From the UHGV virus genome UHGV-0326656: 41,916 nt of DNA; one strand, 5' to 3'. A program made the translations under genes and the position numbers. The DNA is from a virus. The notes beneath the pieces are model-generated. The model searched no databases. It was not told the DNA's origin and saw only the letters and a program-made list of their open reading frames with translations. This document shows, one piece after another, positions 3,207 through 13,225 of the stretch (its first letter is position 1; every line of letters starts with the position of its first letter).

Positions 3207-4069
3207 AGTATGTCTTTATTGAAAAACATCAGGCTGAGTTCAGCATCAAAGCAATGTGCCGCGTGCTCCGGGTGGCCCGCAGCGGCTGGTATACGTGGTG
3301 TCAGCGGCGGACAAGGATAAGCACGCGTCAGCAGTTCCGCCAACACTGCGACAGCGTTGTCCTCGCGGCTTTTACCCGGTCAAAACAGCGTTACGGTGCC
3401 CCACGCCTGACGGATGAACTGCGTGCTCAGGGTTACCCCTTTAACGTAAAAACCGTGGCGGCAAGCCTGCGCCGTCAGGGACTGAGGGCAAAGGCCTCCC
3501 GGAAGTTCAGCCCGGTCAGCTACCGCGCACACGGCCTGCCTGTGTCAGAAAATCTGTTGGAGCAGGATTTTTACGCCAGTGGCCCGAACCAGAAGTGGGC
3601 AGGAGACATCACGTACTTACGTACAGATGAAGGCTGGCTGTATCTGGCAGTGGTCATTGACCTGTGGTCACGTGCCGTTATTGGCTGGTCAATGTCGCCA
3701 CGCATGACGGCGCAACTGGCCTGCGATGCCCTGCAGATGGCGCTGTGGCGGCGTAAGAGGCCCCGGAACGTTATCGTTCACACGGATCGTGGAGGCCAGT
3801 ACTGTTCAGCAGATTATCAGGCGCAACTGAAGCGGCATAATCTGCGTGGAAGTATGAGCGCAAAAGGTTGCTGCTACGATAATGCCTGCGTGGAAAGCTT
3901 CTTTCATTCGCTGAAAGTGGAATGTATCCATGGAGAACACTTTATCAGCCGGGAAATAATGCGGGCAACGGTGTTTAATTATATCGAATGTGATTACAAT
4001 CGGTGGCGGCGGCACAGTTGGTGTGGCGGCCTCAGTCCGGAACAATTTGAAAACCAGAACCTCGCTTAG
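3203..4069 (+). CDS. insF: IS3 transposase OrfB (DDE catalytic subunit)
   Basis: 288-aa ORF overlapping orfA, with integrase-core motifs (...[10 protein letters not shown]..., ...HTDRGGQY...). Confidence 0.9.
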
Positions 4070-8295: not shown

Positions 8296-9170
8296 ACCCC
8301 TACCTCTTCGAATTCCAATTCCAATTGATCACCCCAGATTTCACATGACTCTGAACACGAACCGGTATCGAATCGCCTGGCCTGTACCATCGCCTGATAC
8401 AAATTTCTGTAGTCGCTGTTGGCAGACATTCTGGCAATTCCGTCAAGCGTCAGGTGACCACGGTACATAATGTCTTTACCTGTTCTGCGATGACCATCCC
8501 TGACGTGTTTGCCTGTAACCAGCTCATTAAAAACTCGCATCAGACCTGGTTCGTCTTTACATGCAAGCCCCAGCTTTTGCGTTGACTTTTTGATGCAGAA
8601 AACACAGTTCCCGAGATGCTCCGGGATTTGCAAATCAAAAGGTTGTTTTCGCCACCACCGGATAACATCCGACTTATCAAAATCTGACAGCTCGGCAAGA
8701 TACCGGACGCCCGATTTCGGTTTCAGCCTACGGGGTTCGTCTGCACGAATACCCAGCCATGTGATGTAATTACCTCGCCCGAAATGGTTATCGCAGTATT
8801 TCGTGAAAGGGATGAGTTTTAGCCTGTCAGTACAGAACGCGCCGCCGATGTATGGCGTGCCGTACTTTTTAACCATGTCCATAAACGGTTTAAGCACCGG
8901 CATTCGTGTCTGAATATCCTTTGGCTCCCATTCTGTATAACCATTTGGCTGCCCAAGCTCAGGATTTATATCGACCTGTAACACAGTTAGTGGTATGTCC
9001 CAGAGCTTTACAACCTCCCGGATAAAGCGGTATGTCAGCGGATGTTCGCAACCGGTATCCATAAAGATGTAGCAGACGTTATTGCCAGCCTTTCTTTGTT
9101 CTTCCATCAGGTGAACAAGATATGCGGATGTTCTCCCGCCAGAAAAACTAACTACATGAGTTATGCACAT
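8292..9170 (-). CDS. PAPS reductase-like (PP-loop ATP pyrophosphatase family) phage protein
   Basis: SFSGGRTSAYLVH PP-loop motif near N-terminus; start taken at MCITHVV... (the upstream in-frame extension overlaps the neighbouring gene). Confidence 0.7.
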   Translation of the reverse strand: MCITHVVSFSGGRTSAYLVHLMEEQRKAGNNVCYIFMDTGCEHPLTYRFIREVVKLWDIPLTVLQVDINPELGQPNGYTEWEPKDIQTRMPVLKPFMDMVKKYGTPYIGGAFCTDRLKLIPFTKYCDNHFGRGNYITWLGIRADEPRRLKPKSGVRYLAELSDFDKSDVIRWWRKQPFDLQIPEHLGNCVFCIKKSTQKLGLACKDEPGLMRVFNELVTGKHVRDGHRRTGKDIMYRGHLTLDGIARMSANSDYRNLYQAMVQARRFDTGSCSESCEIWGDQLELEFEEVGV

Positions 9171-9697
9171 TTGCGTAATTCCGATAACTCGTTGAAGCGT
9201 TCCATAAACATCCCGTAGGCATGGCCCGGTGCCAGTGGAATAACTTTGAACATCTCTGTTGCCGGGATACCTTCCAGTACAGGCCATAAAGAGCCATCAT
9301 CAAGCCCGAGATCACGGCGTTCGGTTGCCAGCATAATGAGATCGGCATATTTCACTGGCGTGCTCATAACAGGAGGTAACCCGTATTTCTCACGGATTAC
9401 TGCATCTATTTTTTCTTCCATCCGTTTATAGTCAGGAAGAAGGCGTTTCAGTGGTGCGGGGATGTCCTGGCAATACGCTTCTGTTGCATCATGCATTAAC
9501 GCTTCAAAAGCAAACTCCTGCGGCACCAGCTGGCTGCAAAGCACCGCATGTTGGGCGACACTGTAGAAGTGAGAAAGATGACCGGCAAAGCGACAGATAT
9601 TTGAAAGGGAAACCGCGATATCGTTAATCACGATGTCGTCTTTATTTATCTTGTCATAATAAAAATGCTTCCCGGAAAAAGTTTTAATAAATGACAT
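9161..9697 (-). CDS. HD-domain phosphohydrolase (YfbR/YfdR-like 5'-deoxynucleotidase)
   Basis: 178 aa from MSFIKTF... with GGAG ribosome-binding site 6 nt upstream; HD-type motifs (...FAGHLSHFYSVAQHA..., ...LMHDATEAY...). Confidence 0.6.
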   Translation of the reverse strand: MSFIKTFSGKHFYYDKINKDDIVINDIAVSLSNICRFAGHLSHFYSVAQHAVLCSQLVPQEFAFEALMHDATEAYCQDIPAPLKRLLPDYKRMEEKIDAVIREKYGLPPVMSTPVKYADLIMLATERRDLGLDDGSLWPVLEGIPATEMFKVIPLAPGHAYGMFMERFNELSELRKCA

Positions 9698-9824: not shown

Positions 9825-10649
9825 TCAGGCGGTGAAAGTACCAATAAAGGTTTCTACTTTGCTGTCTTTGAATTTCTCAACAAGCAGATCACGAAATTCG
9901 TTAGCCATATCTTCCTGCACTGCTTCCAGCTGAATAATGCGCAGAACCAGTACAGGACGATCGCCAGTGATAATGCTGAGGCGTAATTTAAACGGACGTT
10001 CTTTCAGACCTTCAAACGGAACGCATTTAAATTCAAATGCCACTGGCATAATGTCTTTGGTCTTCGCTTCGACAGATTCCATCAGGGAGCGTTTGCCGCT
10101 GAAGTCATTATCTTCAAAATCAGCGGTCTGGTTTGCTTCAATCGTGATTTTACGGATTGCCGCAGCCGCTTTTGTTGCCTGAATGGCGTCACCATTAGCA
10201 TCAAAGCCCACAAGGTAGTCGGCCCAGTCTTCAATCCATTCTGCCAGTGACTTCTGGGAGTTACGCTCGCCGTTAACAGACAACAGAGCAGAGAACGGTG
10301 CTGTCTTTTTCAGTTTGAGTGTGGCGGTGTTATCTGCGTGACCTGGTTCATCAATAGTACCCAGGTTAAGCACACTGACGGCACGCATATTATCAGCATC
10401 GATAAAGCAGCGGGTGCCTTCATCTGCAAGATCTTTAGAATAACGGGTAAAGTCATCGATGCTGGCAGTGGAAAGCGCACCACGGAAACGGAAGCGATTT
10501 AAATTAAATTTTTCCAGATCATGAATGCGGAAATTCTCAGGCAATGCCACAGCATCGGCACCAATCTTACTGATAATTTCATTAACACCCTGAGCAGAAA
10601 TAAGGGCATGGATTTGATTAATTGCGGTTGCGTCTAAGTTCTGAGACAT
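9825..10649 (-). CDS. DUF2303 (YfdQ-like) phage protein
   Basis: 274-aa ORF; length and gene neighbourhood (next to the HD protein) match the CPS-53 yfdQ-yfdR pair as remembered. Confidence 0.55.
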
Positions 10650-10714
10650 AATAAGTCCTCACTATATAAAGATATTCAGTGATGAGATAAATAATCAGTT
10701 AATTAAAAACGATA

Positions 10715-11077
10715 TTAACGACCTGCTGCGCGGAGTTTTCCGTCAGGTTCACCGGCAAGAGTCAGCAACTGTCCCTGGTCTTCCTGCAGAATAGTCAGGC
10801 GACCACCGCGATTGACATACATCGGCGTTTCGGTGGTGTCTTCTTCGGAAATTTTCCCGCGGTTAGTCGGGCGAACATATGAGAGTTTGTGTTTGATTTT
10901 CACTCGGTTCTCATCAAACGGTTCGATTTCCAGGTTGAGCGAGACCTTACCTTTGGTTTTCGTGTTCATCACACCGGAAGCGACTTCACTGAGAACTGCG
11001 CCGATTTTGGTTTCAAATACGCCGCCGTCCAGCTCCCCGATAAATGCCTGCACATCAGTACTGCGTTCGCTAGCCAT
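10715..11077 (-). CDS. hypothetical phage protein, 120 aa
   Basis: Start at MASERSTDVQ... with GAGGAG 7 nt upstream; the 100-codon upstream extension in the ORF track is GC-rich, Arg/Cys-rich and looks non-coding. Confidence 0.6.
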   Translation of the reverse strand: MASERSTDVQAFIGELDGGVFETKIGAVLSEVASGVMNTKTKGKVSLNLEIEPFDENRVKIKHKLSYVRPTNRGKISEEDTTETPMYVNRGGRLTILQEDQGQLLTLAGEPDGKLRAAGR

Positions 11078-11545
11078 TTTGCTGCTCCTCATCATATCGA
11101 CCCTGCAAGGTCGGTTAGTTTCTCCACAAAACAGAGAAGAACACCTGCGGTGGCTGCCGCCCGGATGGATTGGGTTATGAGCCCGTCGTCCGGTGATGCT
11201 CTTCTCTGTTTTGTAAAAAGGACGGTACCAGCCGGAAGCAAGGGTACAAGCTGGTACCGCCAAGACTACACACAGCATAAAGTTGTGGTGCCGGGTGCCT
11301 CCCGGTGCCTGGCGAAGGTTGCACACCAGGCGGGTGGGTATCCACAGAAGGTCGACTGTCAGCCTCAACCTTAACCCGCGTGCGCTGAGCCGCATTCACC
11401 ACAACGCTAAGGATTCTCTCTGGTTGAAAATACTTAGCTGTTATGTGCCTGCTTTTAGCCACATCAGGCGAGGTGGACCTAGTTATTCCCCAACAACAAG
11501 GATTCGGTTAATCTGGTTATCCCCAACAACGCAAAAGGAAAAGAA

Positions 11546-11980
11546 ATGTCCGGTAATATCTATACGCTGTACAAATCCCACTGTGAAAATGTTGGAAAGT
11601 ATCGGGGCATTGAAATCAGTGGGGTAGTGTCATCAGTCGAAATAAGCAAAGTTGAATCAAGGGCAACATTACTTACTCTTCTGGACCTTGTCTTACATGA
11701 GCACCGGAAGAAATTCGGCACTCCCTATAATCAGTTGAATGGGAAAAAGGCTCTGGTTCACCTTATTCTGATGAAGCATCACTGGATGCCAAAACAGATT
11801 AATGAGATGAAATTTGATGAACTTCTTCTTTCAATTCAGGATGAACTCACACTTGATAAAATAAGCGTAACCGCCCAGAAATTTTTAGATTATCGAGACT
11901 GGAGATCACAAATTCATCACTTTGATGATTTTGACGAAAATGAATGGGATCCTAATTTGTCTGCACAATATCTAAAGTAA
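11546..11980 (+). CDS. hypothetical protein, 144 aa, AT-rich moron in the immunity region
   Basis: AAGGA ribosome-binding site; oriented against the leftward early operon; preceded by two TTATYCCCCAACAAC direct repeats. Confidence 0.55.
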   Translation: MSGNIYTLYKSHCENVGKYRGIEISGVVSSVEISKVESRATLLTLLDLVLHEHRKKFGTPYNQLNGKKALVHLILMKHHWMPKQINEMKFDELLLSIQDELTLDKISVTAQKFLDYRDWRSQIHHFDDFDENEWDPNLSAQYLK

Positions 11981-12158
11981 CATCCTGTGATAAAACCGTG
12001 ATTTCCTGATCCAGTTTTTTTAAGGAGTCTATTGTTTCCTGTCGATAAGACAGCACTTCACGAAGCTGGTTTATAGCTGCCAGCTTCTTTGTCATCCACT
12101 CATAAATTTCCTCATCTGTGTAGCCAGGCGCGACGATTTTGGGTTCTGTTTTGTGCAT
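11952..12158 (-). CDS. hypothetical small protein, 68 aa, first gene downstream of the putative pL
   Basis: ATG at 12158 preceded by GAGGAGA at 6-nt spacing; the TTG start in the ORF track lies inside that ribosome-binding site. Confidence 0.55.
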   Translation of the reverse strand: MHKTEPKIVAPGYTDEEIYEWMTKKLAAINQLREVLSYRQETIDSLKKLDQEITVLSQDVTLDIVQTN

Positions 12159-12195
12159 TTCACATCTCCTCAAGTTATCAGTTACTTGTTGATGG

Positions 12196-12236
12196 GGACC
12201 AGATTGTTAAAGAGCTAAGCGTCCTGTAGGGCGCTT
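12196..12236 (-). promoter_or_regulatory. boxA-like element (GCTCTTTAACAA) with adjacent hairpin; candidate nut-like site; same hairpin plus T-run reads as a + strand terminator
   Basis: Minus strand: hairpin AGCGCCC-TACA-GGACGCT, then TAG, then CTCTTTAACAA, which matches the remembered rrn boxA TGCTCTTTAACAA at 12 of 13. Confidence 0.4.
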
Positions 12237-12406
12237 TTTTGTTGCTAACGAATCATCCTGGACTTCATATGCCCCAGGCGGCTACTTCGTGGGCGTCCTG
12301 CCTGTTCGTTTTTGACATTTACTGACTGCTTACGACACATGCACCGTGTTGCAACCAGATTTTGTTGTAATCCTGTAGTTGGTCTGGAACAAAAGATAAA
12401 ATTAAA

Positions 12407-12443
12407 TTGCGAGATATGCAAGTTATATTTGCGAGATATGCAA
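12407..12443. promoter_or_regulatory. oL-like operator pair, two copies of TTGCGAGATATGCAA 22 bp apart
   Basis: Identical 15-mers at 12407-12421 and 12429-12443; same TTGCG-N5-GCAA pattern as 13211-13225 beside cI; reverse complement gives TTGCAT -35-like hexamers for a leftward promoter. Confidence 0.55.
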
Positions 12444-12454
12444 ATTTATAGGTA

Positions 12455-12477
12455 ATAAAAAGCCACCTTTCGGTGGC
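12455..12477 (-). terminator. rho-independent terminator downstream of cI
   Basis: Minus strand GCCACC-GAAA-GGTGGC followed by TTTTTA, about 20 nt after the cI stop. Confidence 0.6.
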
Positions 12478-12497
12478 CGATGGATGGGATATTGAGG

Positions 12498-13190
12498 TTA
12501 ATTATGTCTCTTAAGGGTTTGCGACTGACTGATTAAGACCTTTCCAAAGACCATGAATCGGTGTTCGTTTTCGCTAGTAATTCCCCATTCACGGTAAATC
12601 TGGTTATCAGAAATCACCAGCAGTTTGTCAGGAATCATTTGAAGTCTTTTAACGTATATTTTGTCATCAAAACCAAAGACATATATACCATCACCATCAA
12701 ACTGATTGATGCTGACATCAACGAAGATGAGATCTCCTGGCTCAATGGTTGGACACATACTGTCCCCACGAACGTTGATAACTTTGATGTGATTGGCTGG
12801 TCGTCCGCCGAACATTGATACAGCATTATCAGTTCTGTATTCGATGGCATGAATCACATCAATGACATCACCGCCCTGGATAAGGCCATTTCCCGCACTG
12901 GCACTGATATCCAGCATTTCAATACGGAACACATCCTTCACCTGCGCAACATCCTCATTGTTACTGTTTTTATATACAGTATTACTTTTGTGGGCAGAGG
13001 TAAAGAGATCAGCAATATCAACACCTAAGCTCTTGGCAATATTACTCAGTGTTTGTTCGGTAAATTGTTTTTGCTTACCCGTTTCTAAGCGCGAGATGTT
13101 CGCCGCATCTACTCCTATCGCTTCAGCGAGATCGGCGATTTTCATGTTCTTCGCTTGGCGAAGTTGTCTGACTCGGTTTCCTATGTTCAT
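12498..13190 (-). CDS. cI: CI-type repressor (N-terminal HTH, C-terminal S24 LexA-like peptidase domain)
   Basis: N-terminal HTH (VRQLRQAKNMKIADLAEAIGVDAANISRLETGK) and C-terminal ...INVRGDSMCPTIEPGDLIFVD...KIYVKRL with Ser/Lys dyad; divergent from cro. Confidence 0.9.
   Translation of the reverse strand: MNIGNRVRQLRQAKNMKIADLAEAIGVDAANISRLETGKQKQFTEQTLSNIAKSLGVDIADLFTSAHKSNTVYKNSNNEDVAQVKDVFRIEMLDISASAGNGLIQGGDVIDVIHAIEYRTDNAVSMFGGRPANHIKVINVRGDSMCPTIEPGDLIFVDVSINQFDGDGIYVFGFDDKIYVKRLQMIPDKLLVISDNQIYREWGITSENEHRFMVFGKVLISQSQTLKRHN
12962..12981. promoter_or_regulatory. near-consensus LexA (SOS) box inside the cI coding sequence
   Basis: TACTGTTTTTATATACAGTA = CTGT-N8-ACAG with AT-rich spacer, about 18 of 20 to the consensus TACTGTATATATATACAGTA; falls in the cI interdomain linker. 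Confidence 0.5.
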
Positions 13191-13210: not shown

Positions 13211-13225
13211 TTGCGTGATAAGCAA
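13211..13225. promoter_or_regulatory. oR-like operator in the cI-cro intergenic region
   Basis: TTGCGTGATAAGCAA differs from the two 12407-12443 copies at two positions; further ATTGCG/CGCAAT repeats follow up to the cro start. Confidence 0.5.

Follow-up and report, generated by a model that had tools for sequence, protein, structure and literature searches.

We analysed two small convergent genes in the virus genome UHGV-0326656, a lambdoid prophage of the SfIV/SfV/CPS-53 type; 'the window' below means this whole stretch of 41,916 nucleotides (nt). One gene, on the + strand, encodes a protein of 144 amino acids (aa) of the ECs1072 family. The other, on the - strand, encodes a 68-aa protein of the YdfC family, and the two overlap at their 3' ends. 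Comparison with related loci makes us highly confident that they represent a conserved, portable convergent pair whose orientation is fixed with respect to lytic transcription. The elements needed to follow the argument are these:

11546 to 11980, + strand: 144-aa gene, ATG start, AGGA 9-12 nt upstream
11952 to 12158, - strand: 68-aa gene, ATG start, GGAG 8-11 nt upstream, first gene downstream of the left operator and promoter (OL/pL)
11952 to 11980, both strands: overlap of the two 3' ends, 29 nt
12407 to 12446, - strand: OL operators, two copies of TTGCGAGATATGCAA at 12407 and 12429, overlapping the presumed pL promoter of the 68-aa gene

Both open reading frames (ORFs) are true genes and not chance ORFs, since each matches phage protein families over its full length. 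The 144-aa protein matched phrog_5286 (1.5e-90, 144/144 residues) and the NCBIfam model NF033230, ECs1072 family phage-associated protein (157.8 bits for a cut-off of 70, residues 4-144 on profile positions 2-142 of 142), and the 68-aa protein matched phrog_1744 (6e-35, 68/68 residues). RefSeq annotation in E. coli genomes covers both genes, the 144-aa gene under the ECs1072-family name. The original prediction, a model's reading of the letters of the window, had described an AT-rich 144-aa gene and a 68-aa gene, convergent and overlapping by about 29 nt, the larger directed against the early-left transcript, between pL and a structured block. These points were all confirmed. Both genes are low in G+C (GC), the 144-aa gene with 38.2% and the 68-aa gene with 40.6%; the window as a whole has 50.0% and the left flank 46-57%. 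Leftward transcription from pL crosses the entire 144-aa gene in antisense, and the pair is bounded by the TTGCGAGATATGCAA operators on one side and by an STnc100-like RNA (11212-11435) on the other.

Co-inheritance and polarity of the two genes

We surveyed 187 ECs1072-family genes with at least 250 nt of downstream sequence, a set drawn in part from 169 further viral contigs (three scans); a scan of genome contigs gave three loci. The sources were Escherichia, Shigella, Salmonella, Klebsiella, Serratia, Yersinia, Pectobacterium, Pantoea and metagenome contigs. A convergent YdfC-like ORF overlapped or abutted the 3' end in 185 of the 187 cases and, counted by distinct ECs1072-protein variants, the partner was present in 40 out of 42. 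The linkage persisted at protein identities down to about 14-30%. Overlaps ranged from 29 to 317 nt, and for a few copies of the Klebsiella type the partner ORF, as far as it can be recognised, stops 52-106 nt short of the gene. Representative loci (numbered L001 onwards in our set) are listed with the length of the overlap.

E. albertii (L008): 64 nt
Metagenome contig (L009): 44 nt
Salmonella phage ST64B (L012): 71 nt
Klebsiella phage KPP5665-2 (L013): 95 nt
Yersinia (L014/L015): 194 nt
Pectobacterium (L016): 194 nt
Pantoea P2-like prophage (L018/L019): 62 nt
Serratia (L023): 74 nt
O157 Sakai prophage Sp4, carrying ECs1072 itself (L020): 317 nt

Diverged partners have in common an N-terminal motif, (R/K)xEPxIxAPxY(T/S)xEE(I/L)xxW. 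When profile hidden Markov models (HMMs) built from clear members were searched against the 1422 ORFs of the loci then in hand, the partners all ranked at the top, including the two most distant ones, which had been left out of the models: sb50, the partner in ST64B, was retrieved with an E-value (E) of 4.9e-5 and the Klebsiella ORF with 2.5e-4, compared to 0.9 for the next-best ORF. The Serratia partner was found with E 1.3e-9.

The pair was observed in four operon contexts:

Behind cI/pL: this window, E. albertii, Yersinia, Pectobacterium
Rightward early operon, between a cII-like gene and O: Sakai Sp4
Late operon, between Q and the holin gene: ST64B, the Klebsiella phage, Serratia
P2-type early operon, as fourth gene: Pantoea

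In all of them the YdfC-like gene is sense to the lytic operon and the ECs1072-type gene antisense, and in every context examined the pair lies within about 1 kb of the operon promoter, as first to fourth gene. Such a fixed polarity is hard to explain otherwise, and orientation with respect to lytic transcription is therefore likely to be part of the function.

Alignment with related prophages gives the limits of the segment. Homology to SfV and SfII ends at 11476 and restarts at 12247, homology to PhiR29_1 ends at 11530 and restarts at 12199, and homology to mEp460 ends at 11263 and restarts at 12338, with other small genes in between in each case. As judged by these sequence boundaries, both genes are inside one exchangeable segment and the slot is an exchange hot spot. 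That the two form a co-inherited module had escaped the original prediction. The original prediction had held that genes in this slot are typically exclusion functions; this generalisation is not demonstrated, as the cargo genes of SfV, SfII, PhiR29_1 and mEp460 carry no known defence or exclusion assignment. SfII has in the same slot (L006 2908-3267) another convergent pair, of 63 aa (+) and 68 aa (-) overlapping by 39 nt, which is unrelated to the genes studied here and matched neither Pfam nor PADLOC. The convergent layout may be a recurring theme of the hot spot.

A 20-nt inverted repeat (11510-11529 and 12186-12205, 75% identical, AATCTGG..CCCCA.CAAC) flanks the cassette at the PhiR29_1 recombination boundaries; its arms precede the start codons of the 144-aa gene by 16 nt and of the 68-aa gene by 27 nt. 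We considered it as a mobile-element end or a shared operator but make no claim for either, since about 10 such pairs are expected by chance in the region (an estimate).

Annotation of the pair is uneven. The RefSeq record of ST64B lists only sb50, and the ECs1072-family gene on the other strand (L012 2845-3279, +) is unannotated; in the Sakai Sp4 record it is the YdfC-like partner (L020, about 9168-9677, +) that is unannotated. In the literature library searched we found no description of the obligate YdfC-like pairing, of the fixed polarity or of the four operon contexts, and the accessions, PHROG identifiers and locus tags of the pair led, in that literature, only to Owen et al. 2020 (PMC7067206). 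Already known are the two families, catalogued as hypothetical proteins, and one member, STMMW_20121, flagged as a candidate accessory gene.

Proteins, transcripts and expression

An exhaustive profile search grouped the ECs1072 relatives into 76 clusters at 50% identity; nearly all are single-domain proteins of 145-155 aa, and those with a named source come from Enterobacterales. The family takes its name from ECs1072 of Sakai prophage Sp4. In an alignment of 47 family sequences, W134 is the sole invariant column, and L50, R54, L64, G66, A69 and H72 are nearly invariant. The AlphaFold2 (AF2) model of the 144-aa protein (predicted local distance difference test score (pLDDT) 86.5, predicted template modelling score (pTM) 0.84) predicts a soluble, acidic, all-alpha protein; its isoelectric point is 6.4. 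We found no fold relatives of this model. In both proteins of the pair hydrophobic residues number at most 11 in any stretch of 19, and the grand averages of hydropathy (GRAVY) are -0.47 and -0.50, with no membrane segment. Nor was a signal peptide or an effector-like domain detected in the 144-aa protein.

The 68-aa protein is acidic and hydrophilic. By tblastn, its residues 1-66 aligned with ydfC/YdfC-family genes of 19 phage records at 39-41% identity (E 2e-9 to 3e-9; best comparison 40.9% identity over 97% of the length, E 2e-9), and an HMM of three sequences, including the YdfC of PhiR42_1, retrieved the YdfC family only. The AF2 model (pLDDT 89.9) consists of a short N-terminal strand followed by one helix at residues 15-67 (53 residues), which suggests that the protein could form a coiled-coil oligomer or use the helix to bind a partner. 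YdfC itself, the product of the third of the small ORFs in ydfABC-dicF-dicB, has no known function. The program-made ORF list extends the 68-aa ORF to a TTG at 12173, giving 73 aa. Window-type copies of the gene were intact in 84/84 cases (loci and viral contigs examined). A run of seven A (12015-12021, - strand) inside the gene coincides with many frameshifted database variants (P0047, P0052, P0056). In another variant (P0017, 103 aa) the stop codon at 11952-11954 is read through and the protein continues with WDP.

Functional searches with these proteins were negative within their respective scopes. In Pfam neither the two proteins nor the 47 family members scored above chance, apart from one stray PAP2_C match in 1/47, PDB sequence searches (single and profile) gave no match for the proteins of the pair, and NCBIfam returned the family name without a function. 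No toxin or antitoxin domain or fold was found in either protein (Pfam, PADLOC, structure). The homology and structure search which the original prediction had proposed as a check therefore placed the genes in the ECs1072 and YdfC families; it yielded no functional relative and no likeness to RexA, RexB or SieB.

The overlap of the two genes begins beside a palindrome-like GGGATCC (11946-11952), which encodes the invariant W134 and a WDP motif. The palindrome, TGGGATCC(C)A, accounts for the family-invariant tryptophan and WDP. In ST64B (L012, around 3245-3260), the Klebsiella phage (L013) and Serratia (L023) the C-terminal tail of the partner has WDP as well. Because the coding sequence is palindromic and is read there from the opposite strand, WDP in the partner tail probably results from the overlap itself rather than from a motif that the two proteins share.

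Transcription signals around the pair are as follows:

11436 to 11545, + strand: upstream region and leader of the 144-aa gene, with two TCCCCAACAAC repeats (11487 and 11520) and a Shine-Dalgarno sequence
12062 to 12087, + strand: hairpin with a weak U-tract, -15.6 kcal/mol, 82 nt past the 144-aa stop and inside the 68-aa coding sequence
12217 to 12245, + strand: intrinsic terminator, hairpin of -11.6 kcal/mol then T6, beyond the 68-aa start
12204 to 12215, - strand: boxA-like GCTCTTTAACAA in the pL leader, 45 nt before the 68-aa start, directly 3' of a hairpin

The 110-nt upstream region is kept in L008, L009 and PhiR29_1, and in part also in L007. In PhiR29_1 the same leader and terminator frame another + strand cargo gene, of 163 aa. 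The hairpin at 12062-12087 is a candidate proximal terminator of the + transcript; at the corresponding site in the partner gene, the ST64B and Klebsiella homologues carry a clean terminator made up of a hairpin and T5. The terminator at 12217-12245 is kept in E. albertii (L008), L009 and PhiR29_1. As it lies beyond the 68-aa start, a + transcript ending there is antisense to the whole 68-aa gene. From the two hairpin positions, the + transcript would thus cover the 3' third or more of the partner mRNA in antisense, possibly its full length. The scope for antisense regulation that the original prediction saw in the overlap is therefore structurally sound and wider than 29 nt, and the interplay itself is plausible. 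With its + strand terminator and a base composition unlike that of its flanks, the 144-aa gene also has features by which morons are recognised.

On the other strand, the GCTCTTTAACAA element has a single exact match in the window and is kept in L003, L005, L008 and L009 (among them SfIV, PhiR29_1 and E. albertii). We take it to resemble the rrn/nut boxA consensus. The pL-leader hairpin which precedes it (12204-12236, -) is the intrinsic terminator when read on the + strand. No second (nutR-like) boxA copy and no N-like gene were seen in the window. The 68-aa protein, encoded by the first gene after the boxA-like site, was considered as an N-like antiterminator and rejected: it is acidic, has no arginine-rich motif and is encoded in non-first positions as well.

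Expression could be followed in homologues. For S. Typhimurium D23580 lysogens, stranded RNA sequencing (RNA-seq) and differential RNA sequencing (dRNA-seq) data with the strands mapped separately are available (Owen et al. 2020, PMC7067206). In this study the ST64B homologue of the 144-aa gene, STMMW_20121, has its own promoter, as shown by a transcription start site, and is transcribed in lysogens. STMMW_20121 (2090066-2090500) and STMMW_20131 (2090430-2090789) map base for base, with one offset, onto the ST64B homologue of the 144-aa ORF and sb50, and this offset also fits the holin and Q-like genes (four genes). Values in transcripts per million (TPM) over 17 conditions were taken from Table S5 of PMC7067206.

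STMMW_20121 (144-aa homologue): 61-269 TPM in 16 of 17 conditions, 4.9 TPM in late stationary phase
STMMW_20131 (sb50, partner): 23-258 TPM
Holin gene: 0.2-33 TPM
Q-like gene: 1.5-7.3 TPM

In the ST64B lineage the homologue, 29% identical to the 144-aa protein, is thus a lysogen-expressed moron. In Sakai, ECs1072 was among the growth-phase-regulated transcripts in a lysogen microarray. The original prediction had expected genes of this slot to be expressed from the prophage. This holds for the ST64B homologue (PMC7067206). The 68-aa gene is a pL-operon member of the YdfC family and no lysogenic-conversion gene. The original prediction had also reasoned that lack of lysogen expression together with homology to ordinary early lytic functions would count against such a role: the 68-aa gene is early lytic by its position, and the 144-aa homologue is expressed in the lysogen.

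Surroundings and likeness to known systems

Shigella phage SfIV and the Escherichia phages Kati, 689R6 and 569R4 share 98.5-99.6% identity with the window from 10600 to 12313, and the interval 11400-12300 is present at a coverage of at least 80% in 408 of 5426 complete E. coli genomes. The neighbouring features are:

12498 to 13190, - strand: cI, CI-type repressor gene, helix-turn-helix (HTH) and Peptidase_S24
12461 to 12478: terminator, following the cI gene
11212 to 11435, - strand: structured block, STnc100-like RNA, preceding yfdP and yfdQ

A third TTGCGAGATATGCAA copy at 13211 lies in the right operator (OR), in the cI-cro interval, and belongs with the OL copies to repeat family D1; the exact pL hexamers are putative. 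Beyond the operators, cro and then a cII-like gene are on the + strand. In SfV, mEp460 and the E. albertii prophage, IsrK and C4-antisense RNA are adjacent, to the right of the cII-like gene, with matches well above gathering scores (L002 5965-6153, L004 5653-5841 and L008 3464-3652).

The structured block gave a full-length, near-threshold match to the prophage sRNA family STnc100/PasD (RF02076), with 43.4 bits where the gathering score is 47 (E 1.1e-7, model positions 1-206); its counterpart in L008 reaches 46.2 bits and that in the Klebsiella phage 108.1 bits. Its 3' end is a hairpin of -31 kcal/mol followed by U5. This hairpin, at 11220-11274 (-), has a weak likeness to DicF, 19.4 bits against a gathering score of 48. 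A scan of the window with Rfam at gathering thresholds gave no match. The ORFs annotated across the block (the extended form of SfIV gp34, SfIV gp35 and a RefSeq 'frameshifted hypothetical protein') are probably spurious. We rejected the block as an obligate third part of the cassette, since none is near the pair in Yersinia, Pectobacterium, Pantoea, Serratia or Sakai Sp4.

The original prediction had likened this place to the slot which lambda uses for rexAB and sieB. This stands in so far as a genuine SieB (PF14163, 8.1e-20) is beside the pair in the Yersinia prophage L014. The slot, however, is downstream of OL/pL, on the opposite side from rexAB. In lambda, rexAB occupies the interval from cI to pL and shares the cI transcript from the maintenance promoter, whereas here the 144-aa gene and cI are on different strands, the OL operators lie between cI and the pair, and a terminator follows cI. 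Pfam, PADLOC and PDB searches showed no RexA or RexB likeness. As for SieB, neither protein matched PF14163 at E <= 0.1. SieB is a membrane protein, in contrast to the predicted soluble 144-aa protein. In logic, the sieB-esc-sas system of P22 and lambda resembles the proposed working of the pair: a prophage-expressed immunity-left function is combined with a phage escape factor and an antisense RNA, by which the phage spares itself (system summarised in PMC7067206). But esc is an in-frame part of sieB, whereas the partner studied here is a separate convergent gene, there is no sequence or domain similarity between SieB and the proteins of the pair, and an exclusion phenotype is known for the sieB side only.

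BstA/aba of the Salmonella prophage BTP1, a prophage defence equipped with cognate self-immunity, is likewise a highly lysogen-expressed accessory gene beside the repressor, and bstA and STMMW_20121 were both highlighted for an accessory-type transcription signature (Owen et al., PMC7067206). In contrast to the pair, bstA is on the same strand as cI and co-transcribed with it, and its self-immunity depends on a DNA site inside the gene, with no partner protein gene. We found no homology between BstA and the pair.

The likeness to the ydfABC-dicF-dicB operon of Qin concerns the other gene. The 68-aa protein is about 40% identical to YdfC, belongs to a repressor-controlled early operon, and its gene has, further along its own strand, a structured RNA with a weakly DicF-like 3' hairpin. 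The window differs from Qin by the 144-aa antisense gene between the ydfC-like gene and the RNA and by having no dicB. In PhiR42_1 and PPompW a genuine DicF (76.7 bits) comes after ydfC, followed in PhiR42_1 by an STnc100-like element.

Type I toxin-antitoxin loci of Bacillus prophages, txpA/RatA and bsrG/SR4, are convergent units with overlapping 3' ends, as is the pair, and in such loci the overlap allows duplex-dependent RNA decay. Here, in contrast, both partners encode conserved soluble proteins and there is no small hydrophobic toxin. Type II systems are not matched either, for the pair is convergent and not co-directional, and Pfam and PADLOC detected no toxin or antitoxin domains.

Proposed working of the pair and rival explanations

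We propose that the pair is one conserved, portable two-gene cassette of temperate enterobacterial phages, in which convergent transcription, and perhaps neutralisation at the protein level, would link a lysogen-expressed accessory gene to its partner in the lytic operon. The 144-aa gene would be of the moron type: AT-rich, provided with its own leader and terminator, antisense to the lytic operon and read from the repressed prophage. The 68-aa gene, adjoining OL/pL on the - strand, is for this reason placed first in the leftward, CI-controlled operon, and CI should largely silence it in the lysogen. There, the 144-aa protein would be made and would exert an intracellular accessory function; as a first guess, it might interfere with incoming phages or stabilise lysogeny. 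Being soluble, it would not be a membrane exclusion protein. Once the lytic promoter fires, transcription of the 68-aa gene would run head-on into the 144-aa transcription unit, the complementary 3' ends could lead to transcriptional interference and to decay of duplex RNA, and the 68-aa protein may bind and neutralise the 144-aa protein, so that the phage's own lytic growth would be spared. The model resembles sieB/esc/sas and BstA/aba by analogy of logic and not by sequence. We infer the antisense coupling and the biological role of the pair, consider a putative exclusion role plausible, and assign to the mechanism as a whole a probability of about 0.4.

Several observations count against this proposal. 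No + strand sigma-70 promoter was found upstream of the 144-aa gene, either by consensus scan or by eye across aligned homologues. We infer its expression from an SfIV-type repressed prophage, and the expression data come from homologues. Moreover, the ST64B partner STMMW_20131 is also read in lysogens, at 23-258 TPM, so that expression of the partner only during lytic growth is not general; this gene is located just after Q, where presumably a lambda-type constitutive pR'-type promoter is to be expected. The pairing has two exceptions, a solo ECs1072-family gene without partner (L007) and a frameshift-split copy, and Qin-type prophages carry YdfC-like genes without the antisense gene, DicF being next instead. 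PADLOC-DB v2 (2023 release) gave no match, either for the two window proteins (E <= 1) or for the 47 aligned ECs1072-family members (E <= 0.01). Finally, contact between the 144-aa and 68-aa proteins is a purely speculative element of the scheme.

That both ST64B genes are found at comparable levels in lysogens would also suit a toxin-antitoxin-like or abortive-infection pair, in which the YdfC-like protein constantly neutralises the ECs1072-family protein until infection or prophage loss frees the effector. Tight genetic linkage and a partner that is small, acidic and helical like many antitoxins point the same way, as do the convergent 3'-overlapping type I loci of Bacillus prophages. In the window, however, the partner is behind two CI operators and no other promoter was found for it, which would leave the effector unopposed in the lysogen; toxin and antitoxin domains or folds are missing from both proteins, the genes of type II pairs form operons read in one direction, and the L007 lineage maintains an ECs1072-type gene alone. 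We regard this explanation as unlikely. Somewhat less likely still is a transcriptional lock, with antisense transcription into the promoter-proximal lytic operon damping leaky read-through from pL, pR or pR' and the proteins being secondary. The pair is always head-on to the lytic promoter and within about 1 kb of it, the terminators halt the antisense transcript before the promoter or repressor gene, and face-to-face promoters are used in this way in phages 186 and P2. But an RNA-only function would not maintain an ECs1072 protein that is conserved over 76 clusters and folds confidently, and the YdfC-like protein is likewise conserved. The present evidence does not firmly distinguish the proposed coupling from the toxin-antitoxin-like explanation, nor from a mainly RNA-level lock.

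The remaining explanations do without the coupling. An early-left 68-aa gene and a moron landed by chance could be unrelated neighbours with an incidental overlap, and both the solitary YdfC-like genes of Qin-type prophages and the general exchange hot spot would allow for it. This is strongly disfavoured by the 185/187 co-occurrence, by the fixed polarity over four operon contexts and by the presence of both genes in the same swapped segment. Improbable to a similar degree is a host-directed lysogenic-conversion factor, by which the 144-aa protein would alter host physiology or virulence and nothing related to phages. The ST64B gene STMMW_20121 is a lysogen-expressed moron that is on in infection-relevant conditions (PMC7067206), and the cassette is present in 408/5426 complete E. 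coli genomes. Such a role would nevertheless leave the obligatory lytic-operon partner unexplained, and the protein has none of the signal peptide, membrane segment or effector-like domain features looked for.

The coupling model also has a stronger form, which we consider doubtful: a previously unrecognised two-component prophage system in which a soluble lysogen effector with a new fold would act against incoming phages or lock the lytic operon, and its partner would serve as off-switch, at the RNA and protein levels, upon induction. If true, the pairs would be self-immune modules of a new family, serving prophage defence or gatekeeping and pluggable into pL, pR, pR' or P2-type early operons.

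The cassette is common, yet both of its genes are labelled 'hypothetical' and one member is unannotated in several reference records. Considering the pair as one unit turns two anonymous ORFs into a testable system and provides a first functional lead for the YdfC family, a 'y-gene' of K-12. It would offer a clean case of a prophage coupling a lysogen-expressed function to its own induction via convergent transcription and, should the pair act in defence or as a gatekeeper, a family with a new fold would join the prophage immunity repertoire.

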